Positions 2,680 through 64,000 of a stretch of 64,000 nucleotides of DNA are shown in pieces. Within the stretch, counting starts at the first letter, position 1. Every line of letters begins with the position of its first letter. Under the pieces are notes generated by a model. It saw nothing but the letters and a program-made list of their open reading frames with translations, had not been told where the DNA came from and made no database searches. Source of the DNA: Eledone cirrhosa. Taxonomy: Eukaryota. The translations under genes were made by a program, and so were the position numbers. The DNA is taken from the NCBI GenBank assembly GCA_964016885.1, contig OZ024743.1, positions 176,762,001 through 176,826,000 of the forward strand. The letters run 5' to 3'.

Positions 2680-2681
<2 letters not shown>

Positions 2682-2875
2682 AAAATGTTTAACCTCGACG
2701 GCAGAGCTGAAGCCATTTCGTCGGCTATTTCTGGACTAAAGTCCAGAAATAGCCGACGAAACGGCTTGAGTTCTGCCGTCGGGGTAAACATTTTCCTATT
2801 ACCCACTCTACTACGCTAAGTATTGAGTACTCTGGTGCGTTATGGTCCATATGGTTCCTTACCACACCCCCTTCG

Positions 2876-2877
<2 letters not shown>
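2680..2877 (+). mobile_element. Short fold-back element, family H1 (3' half of a hammerhead plus a conserved tail)
   Basis: Palindrome 2680-2796, then the tail tattacccactctactac...ggttccttaccac; contains GAAA-cggc-loop-gccg-TC-ggggtaa. Flanked by (TA)n; homologous to 4855, 6523 and 54870. Confidence 0.85.
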
Positions 2878-2909
<32 letters not shown>

Positions 2910-3189: not shown

Positions 3190-3746
3190 ATGCAGAGCGG
3201 TTGTTGGTCAGGCAGAAATTAAAAATTAGAATTGTAGCTCTGAAATAGCAATATATATATGGATGTACATATATAGTATTTTGCAATACACTTTATGATT
3301 AATTAAAAGCATTTTGAAGACCGTAAGCTATTGTTTTAAAGTAGTGACAAATTCACTCACTTCGATCTCAGCAAACAGGAGGAGATAAGCCGACATGACA
3401 TGTTTCGCTTTTGTTGAAGCTTATCAAGGCCAACTACCCCGCCCGTCTGCAGAGCTACAATTCTAATTTTTAATTTCTGCCTGACCAACAACCGCTCTGC
3501 ATAATCAGCTCCTGATTATTTACTAGATTTCTATAAGAATATAACATCATTGATCTCAGCAGACGGGCGGGGTAGTTGGCCTTGATAAGCTTCAACAAAA
3601 GCGAAACATGTCATGTCGGCTTATCTCCTCCTGTTTGCTGAGATCGAAGTGAGTGAATTTGTCACTACTTTAAAACAATAGCTTACGGTCTTCAAAATGC
3701 TTTTAATTAAGCATAAAGTGTATTGCAAAATACATTATATTTACAT

Positions 3747-3752
<6 letters not shown>
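3190..3752. mobile_element. Nested double inverted-repeat element carrying two opposite hammerhead copies
   Basis: ~3190-3242 is the reverse complement of ~3449-3505, and ~3254-3449 is the reverse complement of ~3559-3752. Confidence 0.8.
3576..3623 (+). ncRNA. Type-I hammerhead ribozyme, U3:A8 core variant (mirror copy on minus strand 3386-3433)
   Basis: ggcc-TTGATAA-gctt(caacaa)aagc-GAAA-cat(gtc)atg-TC-ggct. Stems I, II and III all pair; GUC cleavage triplet. Confidence 0.7.
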
Positions 3753-3782
<30 letters not shown>

Positions 3783-3914: not shown

Positions 3915-4042
3915 TACCAAGAATTTACGGTAGTGTCCAATCCGTATGAAGAACTCAATGTAATCCAGATATCATGAAAAGAGAAGATGCATTCAAAAAC
4001 TATTTTCGATGAAAATTAACGGAAAACAGAGTCAAGATAAAT

Positions 4043-4401
4043 TAATAAAATAATGAATAAACAAAGAAACAGTCCCTTATATTAAAAAAATTCATCATTT
4101 TACGATCGTTTCTAGGATATATAAGTGTTAGAGTTGGTATGCATATTCTATAGATCTATGTACAATATTTATACAAACTATCAGAGGGAATATACATACC
4201 TACATATTATTTCTGAAGACAGCATATATATGTGTAGGTATGTATATTCCCTCTGATAGTTTGTATAAATATTGTACATAGATCTATAGAATATGCATAC
4301 CAACTCTAACACATATATATCCTAGAAACGATCGCAAAATGATGAATTTTTTTTTTTTTTAATATAAGGAAGTGTTTCTTTGTTTATTCATTATTTTATT
4401 A

Positions 4402-4405
<4 letters not shown>
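4043..4405. repeat. ~165-bp-arm inverted repeat
   Basis: ~4043-4207 is the reverse complement of ~4230-4405, with a few mismatches. Confidence 0.85.
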
Positions 4406-4465
<60 letters not shown>

Positions 4466-4854: not shown

Positions 4855-5053
4855 GGAAAAAGTATGATCCCGACGGCGGAGCACAAGCCGTTTCGACGGC
4901 TATTTCTGGACGGCTATTTCTAGAAATAGCCGTCGAAACGGCTTGAGCTCCGCCGTCGGGGTCATACTTTTTCCTATTTCCCACTCTACTACCCTAATTA
5001 TTGAGTACTCTGGTGCGTTATGGTCCATCTGGTTCCATACCACAATTCCTTTG

Positions 5054-5055
<2 letters not shown>
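4855..5055 (+). mobile_element. Fold-back element, family H1
   Basis: Palindrome 4855-4974 plus the same tail as the 2680 copy; (TA)n on both sides. Confidence 0.85.
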
Positions 5056-5127
<72 letters not shown>

Positions 5128-5129
<2 letters not shown>

Positions 5130-5239
5130 TGGTAAACGGAATAGAAAATGCTGACAAATTTTTCACTGTGAACAATTTGTCAGCATTTTCTATTCCGTTT
5201 ACCAATTATAATAACTTGTGTGTTACACCTCGATTCTTT

Positions 5240-5545: not shown

Positions 5546-6253
5546 ATATAGGTTAACACAAATCAATATATTTGATAAACAAATCCTCATATTTATGTAT
5601 GTATTGTAAATGACCAAGTTAGCTAGATAGAAATATACTAATAATAATATTACAGTTTGCCTATCATGACTTAAGATAATACATCATAAATCAACAAAAA
5701 CAAATTGTATTGGCAATGGCCGTGGTGGTTGGACAAATTTAAATTTCAAAATCAAACCTGTTCCGTAGACAGGTTTAAACCTTAAAATCCAAATATGTTT
5801 CGAATAATGAAAAAGTGGAAGGAATACCGCATTTTGATCTCCTCAGCAAGCACTATAAAAATTGGTATGTTCCACTTCAAAATATTTAGGAAGACTGTTT
5901 AACGCACGAGGTAACCTCATGCGGTTATCCAGTGTCTAGCTAGTCACATACTCGTGCTGCTAGAAATAACAGCCGTTTGTATGGGGCTAAAATCAGCTCA
6001 ACGAAACATATTTGGATTTTAAGGTTTAAACCTGTCTACGGAACAGGTTTGATTTTGAAATTTAAATTTGTCCAAGCACCACGGCCATTGCCAATACAAT
6101 TTGTTTTTGTTGATTTATGATGTATTATCTTAAGTCATGATAGGCAAACTGTAATATTATTATTAGTATATTTCTATCTAGCTAACTTGGTCATTTACAA
6201 TACATACATAAATATGAGGATTTGTTTATCAAATATATTGATTTGTGTTAACC

Positions 6254-6258
<5 letters not shown>
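5546..6258. repeat. ~255-bp-arm inverted repeat with a ~200-bp spacer
   Basis: 5546-5802 is the near-perfect reverse complement of 6002-6258. Confidence 0.9.
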
Positions 6259-6419: not shown

Positions 6420-6771
<352 letters not shown>

Positions 6772-24074: not shown

Positions 24075-24646
24075 TATATATACATACATGCACACATATA
24101 TATATGTACGTATGGATTCACCAAACATTTATTATAATGCTCGGTGTGTTTGTAAACAAACATCCCGTATTAATCCGTAGTATCTAGCAACCATCGTTGC
24201 TCATTTGTTCAAAACTGACAAAGGAACGCCGTACTAGTTTCAAGCTTATTAGCTATCGTCAGCAACGTATACCTTCCTGCCAGATGATTGAACGTCTGAA
24301 AGTATATACTTTCCTTATGCATATTAACGGCTGAGCAGCCTAATTTGCATATCGAGTGAGTTAATCGGCCGGGGTACCGAAAACGATAAACGGAAAAAAT
24401 TAAACGAAATTTCATTTCTCACTCTTAGTACGGCTGTTACTTAAATATAAGTATATATACGTACATACATATATGTATACAGACGTACAGTAGTATGTAT
24501 ATATATATACATGTATGTATATACATACATGTATATATACTACTGTACGTCTGTATACATATATGTATGTACGTATACATACTTATATTTAAGTAACAGC
24601 CGTACTAAGAGTGAGAAATGAAATTTCGTTTAATTTTTTCCGTTTA
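24075..24646 (-). mobile_element. ~445-bp hammerhead element (family H2), minus-strand monomer plus inverted arm
   Basis: 24075-24515 is homologous (reverse complement, permuted) to 56268-56917; ~24388-24515 is mirrored at ~24516-24646. Confidence 0.85.
24222..24277 (-). ncRNA. Minimal type-I hammerhead ribozyme
   Basis: Minus strand: cgttg-CTGACGA-tagctaataagctt-GAAA-ctag-TA-cggcg. Confidence 0.75.
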
Positions 24647-24657
24647 TATATATATAT

Positions 24658-40569: not shown

Positions 40570-41136
40570 TAGTGTAGAGGAATGTGTAGCTGAGTACACA
40601 TGAAACTTAACTCAATTTGTTCTGTTTTTATTTAATTAATTATATTTTCAATCTTACAATTCTGGCAATATTTATGGTACATCTGGGGTGATTTTGAACT
40701 ATTTCTGTATTAGAATACACAACTGCCTGCAATATCATTAATTAATAAATGTGGATATTTATATTCATTAGATTTCATTTAGCTTGGTTCTATTCCCAAA
40801 CTAATTCTACCTAATAAAGGTTGGTTGGACAATTTGACAATTAATTGAAATACTTGGGTAGTTGTGTATTTTATGAAAATCTCTTCTCTGTGGTAAGTGG
40901 AAAGGAAATATTTCATTTAGTTCTTCTGGCAGGATTATCATATTAAAGTAGTTGATTGCATCAATTTTAAATGGCTCTTTCTAAGATTTCATTTCCAAAT
41001 ATATCACTTTATTCCATTATTTTTCATTTGTTCAGGTTAGAAATTTATTCAAAGTGAAAAAATCAAAACACCTAGTGCTGAAATGATATGTATGTGTATA
41101 TATCATCATCATCGTTTAATATATATATATATATAT

Positions 41137-42643
41137 AAAAAACGTGAGGTGCTCAGGATTGCTAGGCAATGTGTCAAGGAAAACCGTGATATTGTCGGGG
41201 AGAAGTGTGTCCTTAATGATGATGGTGTACTTGCCATCACTGACGCTGATAAGAAGGTAGCTTGGAAGTGTCACTACGAAAGGCTGCTAAATGAGGAGAA
41301 TAAATGGGAGAAAGATAGTCTCCCCCACATCGATCCAATAGAGGGACCAGCAGTGCAAGTTGAAGGTAGTATAATAAGTAAGGCGATCAAAGATATGAAG
41401 ACAGGCAAAGCAGCTAGGCCTTCGGAAATAATTGCTGAAATGCTGAAAGCATCTGGAACGGTGGGACACACTATGGTCACCTGGATAGTAAACCAAGTCA
41501 TACAGAATGGGGTCGTTCCGAAGGACTCGCATAGCAGCATCATCATTAACTGCTACAAGGGTAAAGGAGATGCCCTAGATAGGGGAAACTATAGAGGCAT
41601 TAAATTAATTGACCAGGTCATGAAGGTCACAGAAAAGTAATAGCGCAACTAATCAGAGAGCGAATTGATCTAGATGAAATGAAGTTCGGGTTTGTGTCAG
41701 GTAAAAGTACGACAACTACAGAAGTACCTAGCTAAAAGTAAACCCCTATACTTAGCTTTTGTTGACTTGGAGAAAGCCTTTGACAGAGTCCCTGCTCCAT
41801 TATCTGGTGGGCTCTTAGAAAACTAGGTGTTGATGAATGGCTTGTGAGAGCTATACAAGCCATGTATAAAGAAACAGTCAGCAAGGTTAGAATTAACAAC
41901 GAATATAGTGAAGAGTTTAGCGTAAAAGTTGGTGTTCATCAGGGCTCCGTCCTTAGCCCCCTACTATTTATTATTGCCCTTCAGGTTATAACAGAGGAGT
42001 TCAAGACCGGCTGCCCATGGGAACTCCTATACGCAGATGATCTAACAGTCATAGCTGAATCAATGGCTGAACTAGAGAAGAAATTCCAAACATGGAAGCA
42101 TGGCCTAGAATCAAAAGGCCTTAAAGTTAACTTGTCTAAGACTAAAGTTCTAGTTTGTAGGAATGAAAATAGGACACTGGTCCCATCTGGGAAATGGCCA
42201 TGCTCAGTGTGTAGGAAAGGAGTAGGCAGAAACTCCATTTTATGTTCCAAATGCAAAGTATGGGTGCATAAAAGATGTAGTGGGATCATAGGTAAGCTAA
42301 CTAAGAATATAGATTTTATATGTGGCCGGAGATCAGGTGCAATAAGATGTAAAGTTATGTTGGTACCACAACATCCAGTCCGAAATAAATGAGGTCATGT
42401 AGGTGTCACGACAAAAAAAACACACAGTCCACGCTGTAATGTGGCCGTGTAGGTAACACGGTAAAAACCTCCCAGTCCACACTGTAAAAGTGGTTGGTGT
42501 TAGGAAGGGCATCCAGACGTAGAAAACCCACCAGACAGTCCTATACGAGCAAGACAACCAATCTTGCCTCAAGTGGGAAAATTCCCGTCCAAACCCATGC
42601 AAGCGTGGAAGATGGACGTTAAACGATGATGATGATGATGATG
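41137..42643 (+). mobile_element. Truncated, internally deleted RTE LINE
   Basis: ORFs 41083-41640 and 41844-42392 match the 49392 ORF; sequence jumps from the PHD-like finger to the 3'UTR at ~42345; (GAT)n tail. Confidence 0.9.
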
Positions 42644-43806: not shown

Positions 43807-43912
43807 TATATATATATATGAAGTATTTCCGTAGAAAGGGTAAAGGAATGGAGAGTGCTCTATGTATGCTACAGAGCTATTTAAATATGTAATAAACAAC
43901 ACAATACAATTA

Positions 43913-43984
43913 TCCCATTTACCAAAGGTTTCACGAAGACAGGCGAGCTCAACAGAGACGTCTGAAATCGTTCATCAGAAGGAA
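43913..43984 (-). ncRNA. Type-I hammerhead ribozyme inside inverted repeat 43920-44081
   Basis: Minus strand: ttcctt-CTGATGA-acga..agac...gtct-tcgt-GAAA-cc(ttt)gg-TA-aatggga. Confidence 0.65.
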
Positions 43985-44406
43985 ACATTTTATAATTTGA
44001 AATATATATTAAATGTTTCCTTCTGACAAACGATTTCAGACGTCTCTGTTGAGCTCGCCTGTCTTCATGAAACCTTTGGTATATGTATATATGGTATATA
44101 TGGTATATACATATATATATATCCGAAATATATAGGGACAATTAAATCTCTCCCAAGGTAACTCTTTCTCGTGTTGTTATTTTTATTTTTATCCTTTACG
44201 CTCATTCCTTCATTCCTCTACACATTACAATCTTATACACGCCACGCATCTCAACGTACACCCACTTACATCTCTCTCTCGACCACCGGATCTTGTTACC
44301 CGGAGATTTACCCATCTGCATTGTCGAGGCTTCCAAACAACTTAAAGAAATTTACCTTATTATTCCACAATGCTTCAAGCAAATTTCAATACTCTCATAT
44401 ATATAT

Positions 44407-47400
44407 AGCGTTAAATTTTCCCTGCTGTATTAGCGATAAATTTTCGAGGGTTTCTCTTAGTAGCTTTTTCATGTCGTTAATATTATGATGTTCCCTGCTG
44501 TATTAGCGTTAAATTTTCCCTGCTGTATTAGCGATAAATTTTCGAGGGTTTCTCTTAGTAGCTTTTTCATGTCGTTAATATTATGATGTTCCCTGCTGTA
44601 TTAGCGTTAAATTTTCCCTGCTGTATTAGCGATAAATTTTCGAGGGTTTCTCTTAGTAGCTTTTTTTCATGACGTTATTATTGTTAATTTTACTGATGTA
44701 GTATTAACTTATTAACTTGGATATTTACCATGCGGTATTCTAATCCTATTGTATCTCTCTCAGTTATTTACCATGCGACCCTCAGTTCCCCCCCCCTCTA
44801 TGCACTTCTTTAAGGCTTACTACCCTGTCTTTAACCTAATTCATTTTCAATCTGAAAATATTGAAGAGATAAGACACTTTGCCATTCTTCTCTGCTAAAA
44901 TGTACCACTAGAGCTGATTCAAATTTTCCCAGCCAGCCATCCACCTAATCTACGAAGGTATTTTAGCCTACATATTGTCGTTAATATTATGATGTTCCCT
45001 GCTGTATTAGCGTTAAATTTTCCCTGCTGTATTAGCGATAAATTTTCGAGGGTTTCTCTTAGTAGCTTTTTCATGTCGTTAATATTATGATGTTCCCTGC
45101 TGTATTAGCGTTAAATTTTCCCTGCTGTATTAGCGATAAATTTTCGAGGGTTTCTCTTAGTAGCTTTTTCATGTCGTTAATATTATGATGTTCCCTGCTG
45201 TATTAGCGTTAAATTTTCCCTGCTGTATTAGCGATAAATTTTCGAGGGTTTCTCTTAGTAGCTTTTTTTCATGACGTTATTATTGTTAATTTTACTGATG
45301 TAGTATTAACTTATTAACTTGGATATTTACCATGCGGTATTCTAATCCTATTGTATCTCTCTCAGTTATTTACCATGCGACCCTCAGTTCCTCCCCCCCC
45401 CCTCTATGCACTTCTTTAAGGCTTACTACCCTGTCTTTAACCTAATTCATTCAATCTGAAAATATTGAAGAGATAAGACACTTTGCCATTCTTCTCTGCT
45501 AAAATGTACCACTAGAGCTGATTCAAATTTTCCCAGCCAGCCATCCACCTAATCTACGAAGGTATTTTAGCCTACATATTGTCGTTAATATTATGATGTT
45601 CCCTGCTGTATTAACGTTAAATTTTCCCTGCTGTATTAGCGATAAATTTTCGAGGGTTTCTCTTAGTAGCTTTTTCATGTCGTTAATATTATGATGTTCC
45701 CTGCTGTATTAGCGTTAAATTTTCCCTGCTGTATTAGCGATAAATTTTCGAGGGTTTCTCTTAGTAGCTTTTTCATGTCGTTAATATTATGATGTTCCCT
45801 GCTGTATTAGCGTTAAATTTTCCCTGCTGTATTAGCGATAAATTTTCGAGGGTTTCTCTTAGTAGCTTTTTCATGTCGTTAATATTATGATGTTCCCTGC
45901 TGTATTAGCGTTAAATTTTCCCTGCTGTATTAGCGATAAATTTTCGAGGGTTTCTCTTATTAGCTTTTTCATGTCGTTAATATTATGATGTTCCCTGCTG
46001 TATTAGCGTTAAATTTTCCCTGCTGTATTAGCGATAAATTTTCGAGGGTTTCTCTTAGTAGCTTTTTCATGTCGTTAATATTATGATGTTCCCTGCTGTA
46101 TTAGCGTTAAATTTTCCCTGCTGTATTAGCGATAAATTTTCGAGGGTTTCTCTTAGTAGCTTTTTCATGTCGTTAATATTATGATGTTCCCTGCTGTATT
46201 AGCGTTAAATTTTCCCTGCTGTATTAGCGATAAATTTTCGAGGGTTTCTCTTAGTAGCTTTTTTTCATGACGTTATTATTGTTAATTTTACTGATGTAGT
46301 ATTAACTTATTAACTTGGATATTTACCATGCGGTATTCTAATCCTATTGTATCTCTCTCAGTTATTTACCATGCGACCCTCAGTTCCTCCCCCCCCCCTC
46401 TATGCACTTCTTTAAGGCTTACTACCCTGTCTTTAACCTAATTGATTCAATCTGAAAATATTGAAGAGATAAGACACTTTGCCATTCTTCTCAGCTAAAA
46501 TGTACCACTAGAGCTGATTCAAATTTTCCCACCCAGCCATCCACCTAATCTACGAAGGTATTTTAGCCTACATATTGTCGTTAATATTATGATGTTCCCT
46601 GCTGTATTAGCGTTAAATTTTCCCTGCTGTATTAGCGATAAATTTTCGAGGGTTTCTCTTAGTAGCTTTCTCATGTCGTTAATATTATGATGTTCCCTGC
46701 TGTATTAGCGTTAAATTTTCCCTGCTGTATTAGCGATAAATTTTCGAGGGTTTCTCTTAGTAGCTTTTTCATGTCGTTAATATTATGATGTTCCCTGCTG
46801 TATTAGCGTTAAATTTTCCCTGCTGTATTAGCGATAAATTTTCGAGGGTTTCTCTTAGTAGCTTTTTCATGTCGTTAATATTATGATGTTCCCTGCTGTA
46901 TTAGCGTTAAATTTTCCCTGCTGTATTAGCGATAAATTTTCGAGGGTTTCTCTTAGTAGCTTTTTTTCATGACGTTATTATTGTTAATTTTACTGATGTA
47001 GTATTAACTTATTAACTTGGATATTTACCATGCGGTATTCTAATCCTATTGTATCTCTCTCAGTTATTTACCATGCGACCCTCAGTTCCTCCCCCCCCCC
47101 CTCTATGCACTTCTTTAAGGCTTACTACCCTGTCTTTAACCTAATTCATTCAATCTGAAAATATTGAAGAGATAAGACACTTTGCCATTCTTCTCTGCTA
47201 AAATGTACCACTAGAGCTGATTCAAATTTTCCCAGCCAGCCATCCACCTAATCTACGAAGGTATTTTAGCCTACATATTGTCGTTAATATTATGATGTTC
47301 CCTGCTGTATTAGCGTTAAATTTTCCCTGCTGTATTAGCGATAAATTTTCGAGGGTTTCTCTTAGTAGCTTTTTCATGTCGTTAATATTATGATGTTCCC

Positions 47401-49144
47401 TGCTGTATTAGCGTTAAATTTTCCCTGCTGTATTAGCGATAAATTTTCGAGGGTTTCTCTTAGTAGCTTTTTCATGTCGTTAATATTATGATGTTCCCTG
47501 CTGTATTAGCGTTAAATTTTCCCTGCTGTATTAGCGATAAATTTTCGAGGGTTTCTCTTAGTAGCTTTTTTTCATGACGTTATTATTGTTAATTTTACTG
47601 ATGTAGTATTAACTTATTAACTTGGATATTTACCATGCGGTATTCTAATCCTATTGTATCTCTCTCAGTTATTTACCATGCGACCCTCAGTTCCTCCCCC
47701 CCCCCTCTATGCACTTCTTTAAGGCTTACTACCCTGTCTTTAACCTAATTCATTCAATCTGAAAATATTGAAGAGATAAGACACTTTGCCATTCTTCTCT
47801 GCTAAAATGTACCACTAGAGCTGATTCAAATTTTCCCAGCCAGCCATCCACCTAATCTACGAAGGTATTTTAGCCTACATATTGTCGTTAATATTATGAT
47901 GTTCCCTGCTGTATTAGCGTTAAATTTTCCCTGCTGTATTAGCGATAAATTTTCGAGGGTTTCTCTTAGTAGCTTTTTCATGTCGTTAATATTATGATGT
48001 TCCCTGCTGTATTAGCGTTAAATTTTCCCTGCTGTATTAGCGATAAATTTTCGAGGGTTTCTCTTAGTAGCTTTTTCATGTCGTTAATATTATGATGTTC
48101 CCTGCTGTATTAGCGTTAAATTTTCCCTGCTGTATTAGCGATAAATTTTCGAGGGTTTCTCTTAGTAGCTTTTTTTCATGACGTTATTATTGTTAATTTT
48201 ACTGATGTAGTATTAACTTATTAACTTGGATATTTACCATGCGGTATTCTAATCCTATTGTATCTCTCTCAGTTATTTACCATGCGACCCTCAGTTCCTC
48301 CCCCCCCCCTCTATGCACTTCTTTAAGGCTTACTACCCTGTCTTTAACCTAATTCATTCAATCTGAAAATATTGAAGAGATAAGACACTTTGCCATTCTT
48401 CTCTGCTAAAATGTACCACTAGAGCTGATTCAAATTTTCCCAGCCAGCCATCCACCTAATCTACGAAGGTATTTTAGCCTACATATTGTCGTTAATATTA
48501 TGATGTTCCCTGCTGTATTAGCGTTAAATTTTCCCTGCTGTATTAGCGATAAATTTTCGAGGGTTTCTCTTAGTAGCTTTTTCATGTCGTTAATATTATG
48601 ATGTTCCCTGCTGTATTAGCGTTAAATTTTCCCTGCTGTATTAGCGATAAATTTTCGAGGGTTTCTCTTAGTAGCTTTTTCATGTCGTTAATATTATGAT
48701 GTTCCCTGCTGTATTAGCGTTAAATTTTCCCTGCTGTATTAGCGATAAATTTTCGAGGGTTTCTCTTAGTAGCTTTTTCATGTCGTTAATATTATGATGT
48801 TCCCTGCTGTATTAGCGTTAAATTTTCCCTGCTGTATTAGCGATAAATTTTCGAGGGTTTCTCTTAGTAGCTTTTTCATGTCGTTAATATTATGATGTTC
48901 CCTGCTGTATTAGCGTTAAATTTTCCCTGCTGTATTAGCGATAAATTTTCGAGGGTTTCTCTTAGTAGCTTTTTCATGTCGTTAATATTATGATGTTCCC
49001 TGCTGTATTAGCGTTAAATTTTCCCTGCTGTATTAGCGATAAATTTTCGAGGGTTTCTCTTAGTAGCTTTTTTCATGACGTTATTATTGTTAATTTTACT
49101 GATGTAGTATTAACTTGGATATTTACCATGCGACCCTCAGTTCC
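44407..49144. repeat. Higher-order tandem array: runs of a 98-bp monomer (~2.7, 3, 7, 4, 3, 3, 6 copies) separated by six ~307-bp blocks
   Basis: Monomer starts at 44473, 44571 and onward; blocks start at ~44671, 45273, 46269, 46971, 47576 and 48180, with a shortened block at 49077. Confidence 0.95.
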
Positions 49145-52100
49145 TACCTCACAATTTCCCTCCCCCCCACCCCCACACACCACCATAGTCTATTCGACCA
49201 ATCAAACCTAGCATGCCATTTCCACTGCTGCTGCTGCTACTACCTGCCTAACTAACTCTCTCCTCCTCTGGCGCATCCCAACACACCCTGCCATTACCCC
49301 ACCACCACTGTCCTTCTAGCCCTCAATTTTCCCACCGTTAGGGATGGATGAGCTGGGAATACACGAGCAACTCTGAATCAATAGATGAAATATGAATCTG
49401 CGAGCTACCAAGCACCCACGTGAAGCGCCAACCCAGAGACCCTCCCCTACGAGTGTCGACAAATGCCCAAAACTCCGAGTTGGTACCATCAATGTAGGCT
49501 CAATGAAAGGAAGAGCAGGAGAAATCGTAGAAATGCTAGAGCGAAAGGAAGTTGATGTATGCTGTGTGCAAGAGACTAGATGGAGAGGAGGGTCTGCTAG
49601 AGTCCTTGTAGGAAAAAGCCAGTGCTACAAATTTTTCTGGGTGGGAAATGACGATGGGATGGGTGGTGTAGGTATACTATTAGCTGACAAGTGGGTAGAT
49701 AAAGTAATCTCAGTGTACAGGGTAAATGCAAGAATCATTAAACTCAGACTAGTCCTGAATAAGACAATTACCACAATAATATCAGCTTACGCACCCCAAT
49801 CGGGGCTGCCAGACGAACTTAAGGATAGGTTTTACGAGTCCCTAATACACACTACTGCTCTAACAGACGACAAGGACTTCCTAATCATTGCAGGAGATTT
49901 TAACGGACACGTAGGTAAACACTGCGACGGCTTCAATAGAGTACATGGAGGCCATGGAGTTGGCACAAGGAATGAGGAAGGATTCAGACTTCTAGAATTC
50001 TGCGACGCCAATGACATGTCGATATGTAACACAAACTTTAAAAAACCCGACAACCACCTGATCACCTATAGATCAGGGGAGCACTCTAGTCAGTTAGATT
50101 TTATCCTCATCAGAGGACGTGACAGATGGACGGTCGTAAACACAAAAGCCTTCCCTAGTGAGGAATGTACATCCCAACATAGCTTAGTTGTCAGCGACCT
50201 CACGGTCAGAACTAGACGAGCCCTGAAACAGAGGCCAACCTGGAGAAGAAAGATCTGGAAGCTGAAAGTCCCCTCAACCAGTAACAGATTTAAAGATATT
50301 TTACTCAACGCCTACGACAGTAAAGAAGAACAGATAGAGACATTTAACGTAGAAGAGAACTGGGAGTTCCTAAAAAATAACTTACTAGAGGCGACGGATG
50401 AGGTTTGTGGCTGGAGTAAGACCTCAAGCAGGAGGAGAGTGACTTGGTGGTGGAACAATAAGGTAGATGAAGCAGTCAAGGCCAAGAGACAGGCATGGAA
50501 AGAATGGAAGAACGGGGGGAGCAGGGTACATTACATAGAGACCAAGAGGGAAGCTAGGCGACAAGTATACTTAGCTAGGAGGGAAGCAGAGGATAGAAAA
50601 TTCAAGCATGTTTTACAACGTGAGGACCAGAAACAGGAGGTATTCAAGATTGCGAGGCAGTGTGTCAGAGATAGTTGTGATGTCATTGGAGAGAAGTGTA
50701 TCCGGAATGATAAAGGTGAGCTTGCCCTCACAAGTGCTGAGAAGAAAGATGCATGGAAGAGTCATTATGATAGATTACTAAATGAGGAGAATGCATGGGA
50801 AGAAGAGACCCTACCCCACGTAGACCCTATAGAGGGACCAGCAGTACAAGTCAGCGGCAGCGTAGTAAGTAAGGCAATCAGAGATATGAAGATAGGGAAG
50901 GCAACCGGTCCATCGGGTATAGCTGCCGAGATGCTGAAGGCATCTGGGTCTGTAGGTCACACTATAACCACACGTATCGTTAACCAGGTAATACTAGAGG
51001 GGGCCATACCAAAAGATTGGTGCAGTAGCATCATTGTCAACTGCTACAAAGGTAAAGGCGATGCACTAGATAGAGGAAACTATAGAGGTATAAAGTTGAT
51101 GGACCAGGTCATGAAAGTAACAGAAAGAGTTATAGCACAGCTGATTAGGGACCGGGTGAATATAGACGAGATGCAATTTGGGTTTGTCCCAGGGAAAGGC
51201 ACCACTGATGCGCTCTTCCTTGTGAGGCAATTACAGGAAAAGTACCTAGCTAAAAGTAAGCCACTCTACTTGGCATTTGTCGACCTTGAGAAAGCCTTTG
51301 ACAGAGTTCCACGTGCAGTAATCTGGTGGGCTCTTAGAAAACTAGGAGTAGATGAATGGCTTGTGAAAGCGGTACAAGCCATGTATAGGGGAGCAGTCAG
51401 CAAAGTTAGGATTGGCAATGAGTATAGCGAGGAATTTAGCGTACAGGTTGGGGTCCACCAGGGCTCTGTTCTTAGCCCTCTCCTGTTCATCATAGTCCTG
51501 CAGGCAATAACGGAGGAGTTTAAGACCGGATGCCCATGGGAACTCCTGTATGCTGATGACCTCGCACTCATAGCTGAATCTATGGTAGAACTAGAGAATA
51601 AATTCCAAACCTGGAAGCAGGGACTAGAGAGAAAGGGCCTCAAAGTCAACATGACAAAGACTAAGGTCCTTATAAGTAGACGAGAAAACAGAACCCAGAT
51701 CCCCTCAGGGAAATGGCCTTGCTCAGTATGTAGGAAAGGTGTAGGTAGGAACTCCATTCTTTGCCCCAAATGCAAACAATGGGTACACAAGAGATGTAGC
51801 GGGATCTCAGGAAGCTTAATTAAGAATGTAGGATTCACATGCAGCAGCTGTGCTGAAACAGCAAGCAAACAGCCACAGGAAACAAGCACCACCAATCTCT
51901 GGGAGGGCCCTGTAGAAACAGTAGACAGCTTCTGCTACCTAGGTGACCGAATTAGCAACGGAGGTGGGTGCTCAGAAAGTACAATAACTAGGGTAAGAAC
52001 GGGATGGAAGAAGTTTAGGGAACTACTACCACTGCTAGCTGCAAAAGGCTTCTCCCTCAGAATGAAAGGCAGACAGTATGATGCGTGTATCCGAACAGCG

Positions 52101-52809
52101 ATGTTGCATGGTAGTGAGACCTGGGCGCTGAAGGTGGAAGACTTACGTAGATTAGAGAGAAACGAAGCCTGCATGCTCCGATGGATGTGTAACAGTAATA
52201 TACGTGAACGACAAAGCATAAATGAATTGAGAGAGAGACTGAGCATAAGAGGAATCAAATGCTGCGTGCAGGAGAGGCGGTTACGCTGGTATGGACATGT
52301 GATGCGTATGAAGGATGACAGCTGCATAAAAAGGTGCAGAGCACTAGAAGTTGATGGAAACCGCGGAGTGGGGAGACCCAAGATGACTTGGGATGAGGTG
52401 ATAAAAGCCGACCTTACCCAACTACACCTCTCAAAGTCAATGACACACGACCGTGACTTCTGGCGTCACGCAGTAATACAGGGTACCCGACCTCCCATGG
52501 GTACATGCTGAAGCATATAAACGATATGCCCCCCCCCCACCGCAAGGTGGTCATGGAGGTGCCACGGCAAAAAAGCACCCAGCCCACACTGTAAAGTGGA
52601 CGTGTAGGCGCCACGAAAAAGCACCCAGCACTCACTGTAAATGAGGTTGGTGTTAGGAAGGGCATCCAGCTGTAGAAATCAAGCCAGATCAGTTCCTGTA
52701 TGAGCAAGGCATGGTCAGCCGACCAGACACTGCCCACAACAGGACAACCCGTCTAACCCATGCTAGCGTGGAAGAACGGACGTAAAACGGTGATGATGAT
52801 GATGATGAT
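49145..52809 (+). mobile_element. Full-length RTE LINE (leader, ORF, 3'UTR, (GAT)n tail)
   Basis: ORF above; 3'UTR shared with the other copies and with SINE tails; ends ggtgatgatgatgatgatga. The 5' boundary is uncertain. Confidence 0.9.
49392..52511 (+). CDS. Intact RTE-clade LINE polyprotein: APE endonuclease + reverse transcriptase with a PHD-type C4HC3 finger
   Basis: 1039-aa open frame; GTINV, CVQETRW, SAYAPQ, AGDFNGHVG, LDFILI (APE); QFGF, DLEKAFDRV, GVHQGSVLSPLLF, LYADDL (RT); RRLRWYGHVMRM C-terminus. Confidence 0.95.
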   Translation: MNLRATKHPREAPTQRPSPTSVDKCPKLRVGTINVGSMKGRAGEIVEMLERKEVDVCCVQETRWRGGSARVLVGKSQCYKFFWVGNDDGMGGVGILLADKWVDKVISVYRVNARIIKLRLVLNKTITTIISAYAPQSGLPDELKDRFYESLIHTTALTDDKDFLIIAGDFNGHVGKHCDGFNRVHGGHGVGTRNEEGFRLLEFCDANDMSICNTNFKKPDNHLITYRSGEHSSQLDFILIRGRDRWTVVNTKAFPSEECTSQHSLVVSDLTVRTRRALKQRPTWRRKIWKLKVPSTSNRFKDILLNAYDSKEEQIETFNVEENWEFLKNNLLEATDEVCGWSKTSSRRRVTWWWNNKVDEAVKAKRQAWKEWKNGGSRVHYIETKREARRQVYLARREAEDRKFKHVLQREDQKQEVFKIARQCVRDSCDVIGEKCIRNDKGELALTSAEKKDAWKSHYDRLLNEENAWEEETLPHVDPIEGPAVQVSGSVVSKAIRDMKIGKATGPSGIAAEMLKASGSVGHTITTRIVNQVILEGAIPKDWCSSIIVNCYKGKGDALDRGNYRGIKLMDQVMKVTERVIAQLIRDRVNIDEMQFGFVPGKGTTDALFLVRQLQEKYLAKSKPLYLAFVDLEKAFDRVPRAVIWWALRKLGVDEWLVKAVQAMYRGAVSKVRIGNEYSEEFSVQVGVHQGSVLSPLLFIIVLQAITEEFKTGCPWELLYADDLALIAESMVELENKFQTWKQGLERKGLKVNMTKTKVLISRRENRTQIPSGKWPCSVCRKGVGRNSILCPKCKQWVHKRCSGISGSLIKNVGFTCSSCAETASKQPQETSTTNLWEGPVETVDSFCYLGDRISNGGGCSESTITRVRTGWKKFRELLPLLAAKGFSLRMKGRQYDACIRTAMLHGSETWALKVEDLRRLERNEACMLRWMCNSNIRERQSINELRERLSIRGIKCCVQERRLRWYGHVMRMKDDSCIKRCRALEVDGNRGVGRPKMTWDEVIKADLTQLHLSKSMTHDRDFWRHAVIQGTRPPMGTC

Positions 52810-54547: not shown

Positions 54548-54869
54548 TGAAATATATACTGTCTATAAAAACACAGAATAATGAGACTGGAGGGCCTTTG
54601 ATCAAATGTTTAGTCAATCAGGGCTGACCTGGGGTTACAATAACACATAACTATTATTCTATTATTTTATTGGTTTTTATCCTTAAACAACAGATCTGCT
54701 ACTCTCCTCCGCTTAAGGGATTTAGTGAATTATATCAACCCCCAGTACTTAAATTTCAAGTCTGGTACCTATTTTATAGATCTTTTTCTGGGCAAACTAG
54801 CAGCAAACATAAATGCAGATACACACCCATTGATATTTGGTATAGTATATATATATATATATATATATA

Positions 54870-55743
54870 GGAACAAGTAAGACCCCGACGGCTGAGCTCA
54901 AGCCGTTTCGACGGCTAATTCTGGACTGAATGAAAATTTATTCTGGTATTATTGGGGCAGAAACCTTTATTATTTTTGTGGCAGTCTCTTTAGTATTTTA
55001 GCCCCCCCCCCCTCGTTGACCCGTCACCGGTGACGGCTCAACGTGCGGGGGGGGGGGGGGGGGGCTAAAGTACTAAAGGTTTCTGCCCCAATCACAGGGC
55101 CGGCAGCCACCCAGAGCAAGAAGGTGAACTGGTACGAGAATATAATTCAGGGTCCCGCAAAGGAATGCTCGTGCTGGCTCTAAGGGTGCCGCCACGAAGC
55201 AGAGGGTCTTATACAAGCTGCAGGAGGGATCGTACGAGGTAGAAGTGGAGAACGGAGGATTAATACAGAAACACCCCCCCCCCCAAAAAAAAAAAAGAGA
55301 GAAGAAGAGGAAGGAAATGGTGGATAAACGAGAAGTTGAAGCAGGGATGTCACTAAGAGGTATGGAAGGCACGGAAGGGAGGGACAGCGGTCGGAGAGGG
55401 GGGCAAGTGTCCGAAGTCTAACACCCCTGCTATAAAAAGCGGAGTCAGCCAATTCTATCAGCTACCCCTTCCCCCACCAATTTGCCATCACAGATTTACT
55501 ACTAACTTGTGATGTGACCAATCCTGGTGATTATCTCTTTGACCATATATGGAATTACCCCTTGATAAGCTCGGCTATTTAAATACCAGAATAAATTTTC
55601 ATTCAGTCCAGAATTAGCCGTCGAAACGGCTTGAGCTCAGTCGCCGGGGTCTTACTTGTTCCTATTACCCACTCTACTACCCTAAGTATTGAGTACTTTG
55701 GTGCGTTATGGTCCACCTGGTTCCTTACCACATTTACTTCGTT
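54870..55743 (+). mobile_element. Long copy of family H1 with ~80-bp inverted arms, an internal GC hairpin and a complete hammerhead
   Basis: 54870-54950 is the reverse complement of 55582-55662, followed by the family tail; hammerhead at 55555-55650. Confidence 0.85.
55555..55650 (+). ncRNA. Type-I hammerhead ribozyme, U3:A8 variant (cleavage triplet mutated to GCC in this copy)
   Basis: acccc-TTGATAA-g..cggcta...tagccg.c-GAAA-cggc(ttgagctca)gtcg-CC-ggggt; sister copies read gccg-TC-ggggt. Confidence 0.65.
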
Positions 55744-55887
55744 ATATATATATATGTATATATAGATAGATAGATAGATACTCTACTATACCAAGTAACA
55801 ACTCCTCTGCTGAATAAATGGTCTTACTAATCAGGGTAATCCTGATCCCTCTCTCTCTCTCTTTATATATATATATACACATTATAA

Positions 55888-55990
55888 AGGTGAGGACCGA
55901 CAGCTGAGCTCTTGCCGTTTTAACAGCTAGTTCCGAACAACCCAGAACTAGCTGTTGAAATGGCAAGAGCTCAGCTGTCAGGTCTTAACT
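55888..55990. mobile_element. Diverged H1 fold-back
   Basis: gacagctgagctcttgccgttttaacagctagtt pairs with aactagctgttgaaatggcaagagctcagctgtc. Confidence 0.7.
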
Positions 55991-60964: not shown

Positions 60965-63900
60965 CTTGTCACCATCGCCGTCACCATTTAATTCCATCTT
61001 CCACGCTAGCATGGGTTAAACGGTTTTGTTCCATTTGATGCAGGAATGGCCGGGAGACCATGTCTTGCTGGCACGGAAGCGTCTCTGGCAGGTTTACCAA
61101 CCACATTTACAGTGTTGACTGGGAGCCTTTTCACCGTGTCTCCTACACGGCCACCTTACAGTGTGGACTGTTGTGTCATTGACACAGAGGACGGAACGGG
61201 AGAGGGAGGATGGGGTAGGGTGTGGCGATGGGGTATACATTGAGTTAAGAGGTGCCTACTGACTGTAGGTTTGTATGCAATGGTAGTCAGGTCTTCTGTA
61301 CAACTGCATGGCACCAAAGTTCTCGATCCAGTGTCATTGTCTTAGAGAAGTGTAGGTAGGCAAGGTCAGTTTTTATCACCTTGTCCCAGGTTTTTCTTGG
61401 TCTACCCACTCCGCAGATTCCATCAATTTTCATTGCCCTGCACTTTTTTTATACAGCTGTCGTTTTTCATATGCATCACATGTCCATACCAACACAACCT
61501 CCTCTCCAGAACACAACATTTGATACTTCTTATGCTTAGTCTCCTTCTTAATTCGTTTATCCTTCGTCTTTTGCGCACATTACTATTACACATCCATCGG
61601 AGCATGCAAGCTTCATTTCTTTCTAATCTATGCAGGTCTTCAGCACACAATGCCCAAGTCTGACTACCATGTAATATCGCTATTCATATACAAGCATCAT
61701 ACAATCTGCCTTTCATTTTTAGAGAAAAATCCACTGTGGCCAAGAGCGGTATTAGCTCTCTGAACTTTTTCCATCTCCCACTAACTCCTCCACTGCTGAT
61801 TTTGTCACCCAGCTAACGGAAGGTGTCTACTATTTCTATAGAATCATCTGTGCAGTTGAAGGAGATATCATCCAGTGGGTCCTTGCTACTTACTGCACCT
61901 GATCATCAGCCACATATAAAATCTACATTCTTAGATAGCTTACCTCTGATCCTACTAAATCTTTTATGTACCCATAGTTTGCATTTGGGACATAGAATGG
62001 AGTTTCTGCCTACTCCTTTCTTACACACAGAGCATGGCCATTTCCCAGAGGGTACCTGTGCCCTATTCTCCTTTCTGCATACTAGAACCTTAGTCTTAGA
62101 CAAGTTAACTCTAAGGCCTTATGATTCAAAGCCATGCTTCCATGTTTGAAACTTCCTCTCTAGTTCAGCCATAGATTCAGCTATGAGAGTTAGATCATTC
62201 GCATATAGAAGTTCCCATGGGCAGCCAGTCTTAAACCCATCTGTTATAGCCTGTAGGACAATAATAAACAGGAGGGGGCTAAGAATGGTAAACTCCTACC
62301 ATTACGCTAAATTTATCACTATATTCTTCGTTAATTCTAACCTTGCTGACTGTATCTCTATACATGGCTTGTATAACTCTCATAAGCCATTCTTCCACTC
62401 CTAGTTTTCTAAGAGCCCACCAGATTAAGGTGCGTGGGACTCTGTCAAATGCCTTCTCCAGGTCAACAAAAGCTAAGTAGAGGGGTTTACTGTTAGCCAG
62501 GTACATTTCCTGCAAATGTCATACAAGGAAAAGAGCATCCGTGGTACTTTTACCTGGCACAAACCCAAAATGCATTTCATCTAGATCAATTTGGTCTCTA
62601 ATCAGTTGAGTAATAACTCTTTCTGTGACTTTGATGATTTGGTCAACTAATTTAATACCCCTATAGTTTCCTCTATCCAGGGCGTCTCCTTTGCCCTTGT
62701 AACAGTTGATGATGATGCTGCTACGCCAGTCATTTTGTATGACGCCATTCTGTATTACTTGGTTTACTCTCCGGATGACCATAGTATGTCCCACCATTCC
62801 AGATACCTTCAACATTTCAGCAACTATCCCCGAAGGCCCAGCTGCTTTGCCTGTCTTCATATTTTTGATTGCCTTACTTACTACACTACCATCAACTTGC
62901 ACAGCTGGTCCTTCTATTGGATCGATGTGGGGCAGACTATCTTTATTCCATTCATTCTCCACATTCAGTAGTCTCTCGTAGTGACACTTCCAAGCTACCT
63001 TCTTATCACTATCAGTGAGGGCAAGTACACTGTTATCATTACAGACACTCGTCTCCCCGACAATATCACAGTTCTCCTTGACACTTTGCCTCGTAATCCT
63101 GAATATCTCACATCTTTGGTCCTCCCGTTGTAGTATATGCTTGAACTTACTATCCTCTGCTTCCCTCTTTGCAAGGTATACTTAGCTACACGATAGTGTT
63201 CTCTACTACCCCCGTCCTGCCATTCTTTCCACGCCTGCTTTTTGCCCTTGATGGACTCCTCCACCTTACTGTTCCACCACCACTAAAGGCCTGCTCCAGC
63301 GACAGATTTCATCAGTCTCCTTCAACAGGTTAACTTTCAGGAATTCCCACTGTTCCTCTATATTGTATGACTCTTGTTGCTCTTCCTTACTATCAAAAGC
63401 ATCAAGTAATATGCCTTTGAATTTGTTACTGGCTGCGGGGTTCTTCAACTTCCATAATCTTCTCCTTAAGGTATTCTTCTGCCAGCAATTACCTCTGGCC
63501 CTGACTATGAGATCACTTACTATTAAATTATGTTGGGAGGTGCATTTTTCGCGAGGGTGGGACTTATTGTTCAAAACAGATACTTTGTCTCGTTTCCTAG
63601 TAAGGATAAAGTCTATCTGGCTGGTGTGCTCCCCTGATCTATATGTGATCAAATGACTGTCGTGTTTTTTGAAGTTTGTGTTGCAGACAGTCAGGTCATT
63701 TACATCACAGAATTCTAGGATCCTGAAGCCTTTCTCATTTCTAGTACCAAATCCATAACCTCCATGGACACCATCATAGCCATCACAATGTTGTCCAACA
63801 TGACCATTAAGGTCACCAGCAATAATTATATAGTCACTGTTGGGTATCTGGGAAGTAGTAAGCATTAGAGTCTCATAGAACCTGTCATTAGTAACATCTG

Positions 63901-64000
63901 GTAATCTGGATTGGGTTTCATAAGCAGAAATAATTGATACAGTTGTCCCATTTAGTATTAATCTTATTTTAATGATCCTGTCATTCACTCTATCAACGGC
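60965..64000 (-). mobile_element. Decayed near-full-length RTE LINE (intronic to the CCDC138-like gene), runs off the window
   Basis: Fragment ORFs 63266-63988 (APE), 62519-62962, 62279-62515, 61906-62103 (PHD-like) and 61423-61650 match the 49392 ORF. Confidence 0.92.

Follow-up and report, generated by a model that had tools for sequence, protein, structure and literature searches.

Hairpin copies of a repeat family in a stretch of 64,000 nucleotides from Eledone cirrhosa (the window, that is, the whole stretch of DNA analysed) are read here, with a probability of roughly 0.75, as stubs left by a reverse transcriptase that started from the two nicked strands of a (TA)n tract at two sites of an RNA and ran off the capped 5' end of that RNA. 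The fuller account, in which integration by double priming on a capped RNA yields strong-stop-like cDNAs joined at the cap, the promoter lies within the hammerhead ribozyme, and the enzyme jumps onto ADAR-edited antisense RNA, is given slightly better than even odds. The clade, the ribozyme variant and the overall architecture had been described before; new here are the controlled evidence for an extra G, the arrangement of TATA and initiator motifs within stem II, and the make-up of the long copy. The inverted copy, the one-sided tail and (TA)n targets of Penelope-like elements are on record (PMC8557442, PMC3846280), and the origin of their inverted ends and tails is called open in the available parts of PMC8557442 and PMC11167929.

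The proposed course of events is as follows: A promoter consisting of a TATA box and an initiator in stem II would start the RNA at +1, so that the 5' end of the message would be half a ribozyme. The enzyme would bind near the RNA 5' end and start two cDNAs on a single RNA, one of them at the tail end and the other 80 nt inward of it. The two cDNAs would then extend 58 and 138 nt to the cap, with a C gained opposite the cap, and their ends would be joined head to head, often with trimming of up to about 10 nt. If a read-through RNA is primed at its downstream pseudo-LTR, long and full-length copies would result.

Hairpin copies and the parent element

The copies at 2680, 4855, 6523 and 54870 are each composed of (TA)n, an inverted arm, a direct arm, a tail of 80 nt and again (TA)n; the coordinates of all features are collated in Table 1. 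A sequence-only reading of the window had described a family of five copies. Its four members named above have the anatomy described, with a shared arm start straight out of (TA)n and the 80-nt one-sided tail, whereas the fifth, at 55888, is a diverged sister (76-81% over the 3' half of the ribozyme) without the fixed start and without a matching tail. An assembly artefact, named in the same reading as a possible refutation, is contradicted by the recovery of apex joints in contigs of a separate public run (possibly of the assembly's own sample); the best-supported joint, from 54927 to 55605 with the same A on both arms, was present in 31 contigs. About 10 insertions were found in a blind sample of 200 kb from the six largest contigs, which by rough extrapolation to the 3.0-Gb genome corresponds to ~10^5 insertions, and a query of 196 nt (ribozyme plus tail) returned 2350 candidates in the genome.

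Table 1. Coordinates of the hairpin copies and of the parts of the long copy (positions in the window; negative values are element coordinates).
Feature	Position	Strand	Remarks
Short copy	2680..2879	+	Both arms reach +1 (left arm ends at 2737, then AA, right arm starts at 2740); tail, (TA)n
Short copy	4855..5057	+	Small templated duplication at apex
Short copy	6523..6717	+	Right arm gets to +1 at 6577
(TA)n target tract, left flank	54846..54869	.	From sequence
Tail-less inverted arm, -83 to -163	54870..54950	-	Starts at putative inner priming site; 100% to genomic unit, no private changes
Direct 3'UTR piece, -776 to -694	54951..55029	+	Fold-back copy of adjacent edited strand; edited sites shared
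Inverted 3'UTR piece, -694 to -1141, with 23-nt deletion	55030..55460	-	A>G tract 55068-55460
Direct pseudo-LTR, -285 to 0	55461..55745	+	98% to many copies; no A>G among 67 A
Type I hammerhead motif	55557..55650	+	U3-A8 core variant, long stem II, palindromic loop III; triplet 55643-55645 is GCC
TATA-like box TATTTAAA	55576..55583	+	29 nt before putative start; putative function
Initiator-like TCAGT	55603..55607	+	A at 55605 is the arm end of short copies and the putative capped +1
80-nt tail between two putative priming sites	55663..55742	+	From sequence comparison
Diverged sister hairpin (55888 copy of the earlier reading)	55895..55984	.	From sequence comparison

Element coordinates were counted from the tail end of one genomic unit (locus L031), in which an inverted arm, a pseudo-LTR, the ORF, the 3'UTR and a second pseudo-LTR with tail follow one another. 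The tandem unit at this locus measures 3631 bp, and the ORF lies 3' of the tail; in five copies the ATG was located 84-91 nt past the tail end, and several of the five ORF copies read carry frameshifts in homopolymer runs. Homologues of the ORF (n=209) were found in the genome. The structure of the ORF product was predicted with a model built on 90 sequences (pLDDT 84.7). A Foldseek search with this model returned telomerases as the best three matches (E about 4e-8), with other reverse transcriptases close behind, and the reverse transcriptase is telomerase-like in its predicted fold. A C-terminal GIY-YIG endonuclease was recognised by inspection from its VIY..YIG, R, E and N motifs, which are conserved in 90 aligned sequences; a Pfam search with the ORF gave no match, GIY-YIG included, and a PDB sequence search with the ORF gave none either. 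Partial tandems, pseudo-LTRs, an inverted 5' copy and a one-sided tail, as in EN+ Penelope elements, were observed at L031 and at other loci.

The Hydra clade is defined in section 11 of PMC8557442 by DKT, an RWK-type motif, CxCX5C, the lack of CCHH, and (TA)n targets. DKT (a changed DKG) is present in the ORF and in its homologues; the RWK-type motif was read as KRLRWR in 5/5 copies; the CxCX5C linker was found in 17/21 among the rows listed, in which some loci overlap; and the ORF contains CNLC and CKH (the flanking CxxC and CxH) and lacks CCHH. TA is entered by 273/300 fixed ends. By these clade motifs and by the (TA)n target, the hairpin copies fit stubs of a Hydra-clade Penelope-like retroelement. 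The same source gives for the clade an N-terminal RW-type motif, CxxC with CxH, a hammerhead, an inverted 5'-truncated copy and a one-sided tail, all of which are shared by the present element. It differs from the clade as described there in its unit length (3.6 kb vs generally under 3 kb), its tail (80 nt vs 30-40), RWR in place of RWK, and a hammerhead with U3-A8 and long stem II; the available account of the clade describes neither a start site inside the ribozyme nor hairpins of capped ends. The Neptune clade was rejected, neither the CX2-5CxxC linker nor CCHH being present in the ORF. Other Penelope-like ORFs were found inserted near copies of this element at loci L041, L043 and L045, and at loci L113, L114 and L117 a long inverted ORF piece is joined to a short direct end, resembling 5' inversions of the L1 type.

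Outer ends, apex and extra G

The ends of 331 fragments were distributed over the tail end (185), positions -79..-84 (115) and other positions (31), one of two sites being the end of 300/331 fragments. Most loci were picked with queries from the tail or the ribozyme, which inflates the number of tail ends; the number of arm ends was free of such selection. TA follows 107/115 of the ends at -79..-84 and 166/185 of the tail ends. In the blind 200 kb, six arms end exactly at -80 and two diverged arms at -94. The sequence-only reading was right to see in the arm start a point fixed throughout the genome and the mark of a stereotyped step of integration. Exactly 80 nt separate the two outer sites. 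After both comes TAT, a possible pairing partner for a (TA)n primer, and a hairpin-like motif with a GAG loop lies about 20 nt downstream of either site.

The same point had been taken as the end of a fold-back, and is better read as the second priming site on the RNA. Because of the known anatomy of Penelope elements and of the tail of Poseidon_Ac, which is bounded in vitro by two internal starts of the reverse transcriptase (PMC11167929), the fixed arm start is most simply, and by this analogy likely, the inner of two priming sites, i.e. the inner boundary of the tail. According to the available text on Poseidon_Ac, the target is likewise AT-rich, both of its strands are nicked and extended, and ribozyme cleavage is unneeded. 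The starts of Poseidon_Ac lie in the ORF and 30-40 nt apart, unlike those considered here, which are 80 nt apart and about 90 nt upstream of the ATG, and the inverted arm and the apex are not explained in that account.

A variable turnaround had been proposed for the inner ends; the apex was found to be stereotyped instead, both arms stopping at the A of T[C/T]AGT. In subfamily B, the long form of which is known, the A of TTAGT (+1) is itself the most frequent stop, and 35/37 truncated tail-bearing arms and 31/32 truncated tail-less arms extend at most 1 nt upstream of it. This motif, T[C/T]A(+1)GT, sits inside stem II of the hammerhead, and a TATA-like box precedes it, beginning before +1 by 29 nt in the subfamily of the window and by about 31 nt in subfamily B. 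From their consensus, the two motifs in stem II are presumably a TATA box and an initiator. The apex is likely the transcription start of a promoter of this kind inside stem II, as judged from the motifs and their spacing. Many apexes are asymmetric or placed 1-10 nt inward of +1, and the birth structure of the hairpins is blurred by later palindrome deletion. The pLTRs of Adineta vaga Penelope elements (PMC3846280) are similar in that an inverted pLTR, an optional tail, palindromes at pLTR 5' ends, and a putative TATA box with initiator were described; copies are few there, and initiator, apex and extra G are not linked in the accessible part of that work.

The base at the apex was evaluated in subfamily B only, as the subfamily of the long copy has a template C at this position and is confounded. 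Where a one-base gap separates two complete arms, the gap is G/C at 137 loci and A/T at 12. Among the long forms listed, of 1446, the template base at the gap position is T in 99/100; C is found there in 19 long forms. As a control, a position 6 nt further in was checked, and 49/50 among the loci listed, of 123, had the templated base. Placement of the G was determined for 40 of the 137 loci: 24 had it on the tail arm, 12 on the tail-less arm and one had tails on both arms, with three ambiguous. The extra G was seen in more than ten subvariants and in either orientation. Among the 2-5-nt loops listed, 10/50 read C..G, that is, G on both arms; many loops of this length are A/T-rich or read GAAAT/ATTTC and fall outside the account of capped run-off. 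The occurrence of an extra G on either arm fits run-off of cDNA at a capped RNA 5' end, and whatever the nature of the RNA 5' end, addition of an untemplated C there would leave the identical signature.

That the apex marks a stall of the reverse transcriptase at stem II or an uncapped processing site, the G being supplied by terminal-transferase activity, is considered unlikely. The position of +1 inside stem II agrees with such a stall, and untemplated base addition is common to many reverse transcriptases. The edge is nevertheless base-exact at an initiator-like A ~30 nt past a TATA-like box in both subfamilies, the control position is without extra G, and the ribozyme cut site (-100), 41 nt downstream of +1, forms no boundary, only 3/331 fragments ending within -106..-99.

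Capped run-off of two cDNAs, the preferred reading, can be compared with L1, in which an extra G at complete 5' ends has been ascribed to the cap and in which twin priming likewise makes use of a second primer on the same RNA (PMC11702581). The arms of L1 are described there as derived from adjacent, non-overlapping RNA at variable sites, whereas here both arms cover the same 5'-terminal stretch from fixed sites. A search of the open-access literature returned neither a cap signature in Penelope copies nor an account of these hairpins. With a base-exact apex and the extra G, thousands of stubs would read out an RNA 5' end and two priming events, and if the reading is true, the genome holds on the order of 100,000 cap-joined products.

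The long copy, its ribozyme and its A>G tract

The motif of the long copy has the core positions 3-9, the GAAA and stems I-III of a type I hammerhead; among long forms, position 7 is variable. The sequence-only reading had ascribed the full ribozyme to this copy alone. Within the window the 5' half, ACCCC-TTGATAA (55557-55568), is indeed confined to it, and the short copies hold the 3' half of a type I hammerhead only, as had been stated; elsewhere in the genome full motifs are common, with 1446 matches for one subfamily. The cleavage triplet of hammerheads follows the NUH rule. The triplet of the long copy departs from it, with GCC where most family copies have GTC, and its ribozyme is therefore likely inactive. 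The minimum-energy fold of the region differs from the hammerhead fold, and Rfam gave no hammerhead match for this family, the hits listed being miRNA look-alikes below the gathering score. The U3-A8 variant is known from other Penelope elements (PMC4209133). As in the minimal hammerheads of that source, U3-A8 covariation, a long helix II and a short helix I are found, and motifs on opposite strands lie close together; unlike them, most copies keep the 3' half alone and a promoter-like pair is located inside helix II. A promoter inside the ribozyme, if true, would explain the dominance of ribozyme halves and spare the message from cutting itself; only read-through would rebuild a whole ribozyme if the message starts with half of one.

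The long copy is a mosaic of four pieces, alternately inverted and direct (Table 1). In 55068-55460, 41/47 private changes are A>G on the plus strand, and the flanking parts are without such changes. A 5' G precedes 0/41 of the A>G sites and 27/127 of the unchanged A (Fisher p=3.8e-4); enrichment of a 3' G was not found at these sites (p=0.66). ADAR enzymes avoid a 5' G neighbour. Among 228 segments scanned, the long copy alone was hypermutated. Pieces of the inverted 3'UTR piece were matched by three contigs of the separate run with no other letters, the edited tract being covered by 1-4 reads at 90% likeness. The tract was rejected as a subfamily, the best other copies being 86% alike and nearly all without the G. 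From the pattern of changes and of their neighbours, editing of an RNA by ADAR before it was copied into DNA is the likely origin.

The edits lie on the antisense strand of the element, with the adjacent sense part unedited; for this reason the edited piece was likely templated by an antisense or hairpin RNA to which the enzyme had switched. The direct piece 54951..55029 mirrors the edited sites, so the fold-back came after editing; it is the one true fold-back, at 55029 inside the long copy and away from the fixed point. The long copy would be a product of priming at the downstream pseudo-LTR of this kind of read-through RNA; during its synthesis the reverse transcriptase likely moved over to an ADAR-edited RNA of antisense polarity, with a single fold-back at 55029.

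Misincorporation of G opposite U by the reverse transcriptase on sense RNA, or errors of the polymerase-eta type at WA, would give the tract without editing, and this too is held to be unlikely. The antisense A>G polarity is that expected of U:G mispairing on sense RNA, 40/41 sites are WA, and over all loci of the family private T>C on the sense strand is three times as frequent per base as A>G (7.9 vs 2.6 per kb). This background T>C is, however, without neighbour bias, whereas the block excludes a 5' G completely, and about 24% of the A were changed in a single block of 390 nt with sharp edges. If ADAR editing is the true origin, an enzyme that jumps onto edited antisense RNA fixes edits in inherited DNA; no account of ADAR-edited retrocopies was found in the open-access literature.

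Pairing of the arms and further repeats of the window

The two arms belong to the same subfamily in 24/25 classified hairpins (29 found), compared with a mean of 6 and a maximum of 14 after shuffling; gene conversion could also produce this concordance. At 36/40 loci one arm has a tail and the other has none, which suggests coordinated use of one RNA as opposed to two independent choices. At locus L031 (5912-6419 vs 1612-2200, compared by eye) the inverted arm has variants in common with the 3'-most pseudo-LTR that are missing from the pseudo-LTR next to the arm; the locus suggests that both of its outer ends came from one template.

The model of the sequence-only reading, in which a cDNA primed at the tail end snaps back and serves as its own template as far as a fixed stop at -83, is quite unlikely. 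The arms share their subfamily and at times private variants, as such self-copying would require, and a fold-back with shared edits is present inside the long copy. Self-priming accords poorly, however, with the extra G on the tail-less arm in 12/36 oriented loci, with the C..G loops (10/50 among those listed) and the one-base loops, and with L031, where the inverted arm exceeds the adjacent direct arm. Both arms are tailed in L005/6, L007 and L009, and the fixed point corresponds to a start site of the reverse transcriptase of a related element in vitro, according to the available text of PMC11167929. Re-copying of the short hairpin as a whole, as a non-autonomous element, from a few master hairpins is very unlikely, since the recurrence of some apex junctions and the very high copy number are outweighed by the diversity of the junctions, the sharing of a junction between different subfamilies, and the presence of the extra G in either orientation and in more than ten subvariants. 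Under double priming on a capped RNA, MITE-like palindromes in such genomes would be retro-products, which bears on repeat annotation.

Further repeats were noted in the window. At 2270-2284 a lone tail-less end of 15 nt of the 2680 subfamily runs into (TA)n. A second, unrelated hairpin family occupies 3251-3758 and has complete type I hammerheads (U3-A8, short stem II) in both arms; weak matches to Rfam HH9 were obtained within it at 3369-3446 and 3563-3640. More long inverted repeats lie beside (TA)n at 2440-2610, 4037-4407, 5130-5205, 5546-6258, 24386-24647 and 43878-44121, and a loose scan gave hammerhead-like cores at 1698 (+), 5183 (-) and 43978 (-). A tandem array at 44244-49178 has a subunit of 98 bp and a higher-order period of about 604 bp, its copies being 97-100% alike. 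Three related LINE-like copies, with endonuclease and reverse transcriptase recognised by inspection, are located at 41000-42500, 49600-52400 and 61300-64000; one has an open frame of 933 aa, and two are inverted relative to the third.
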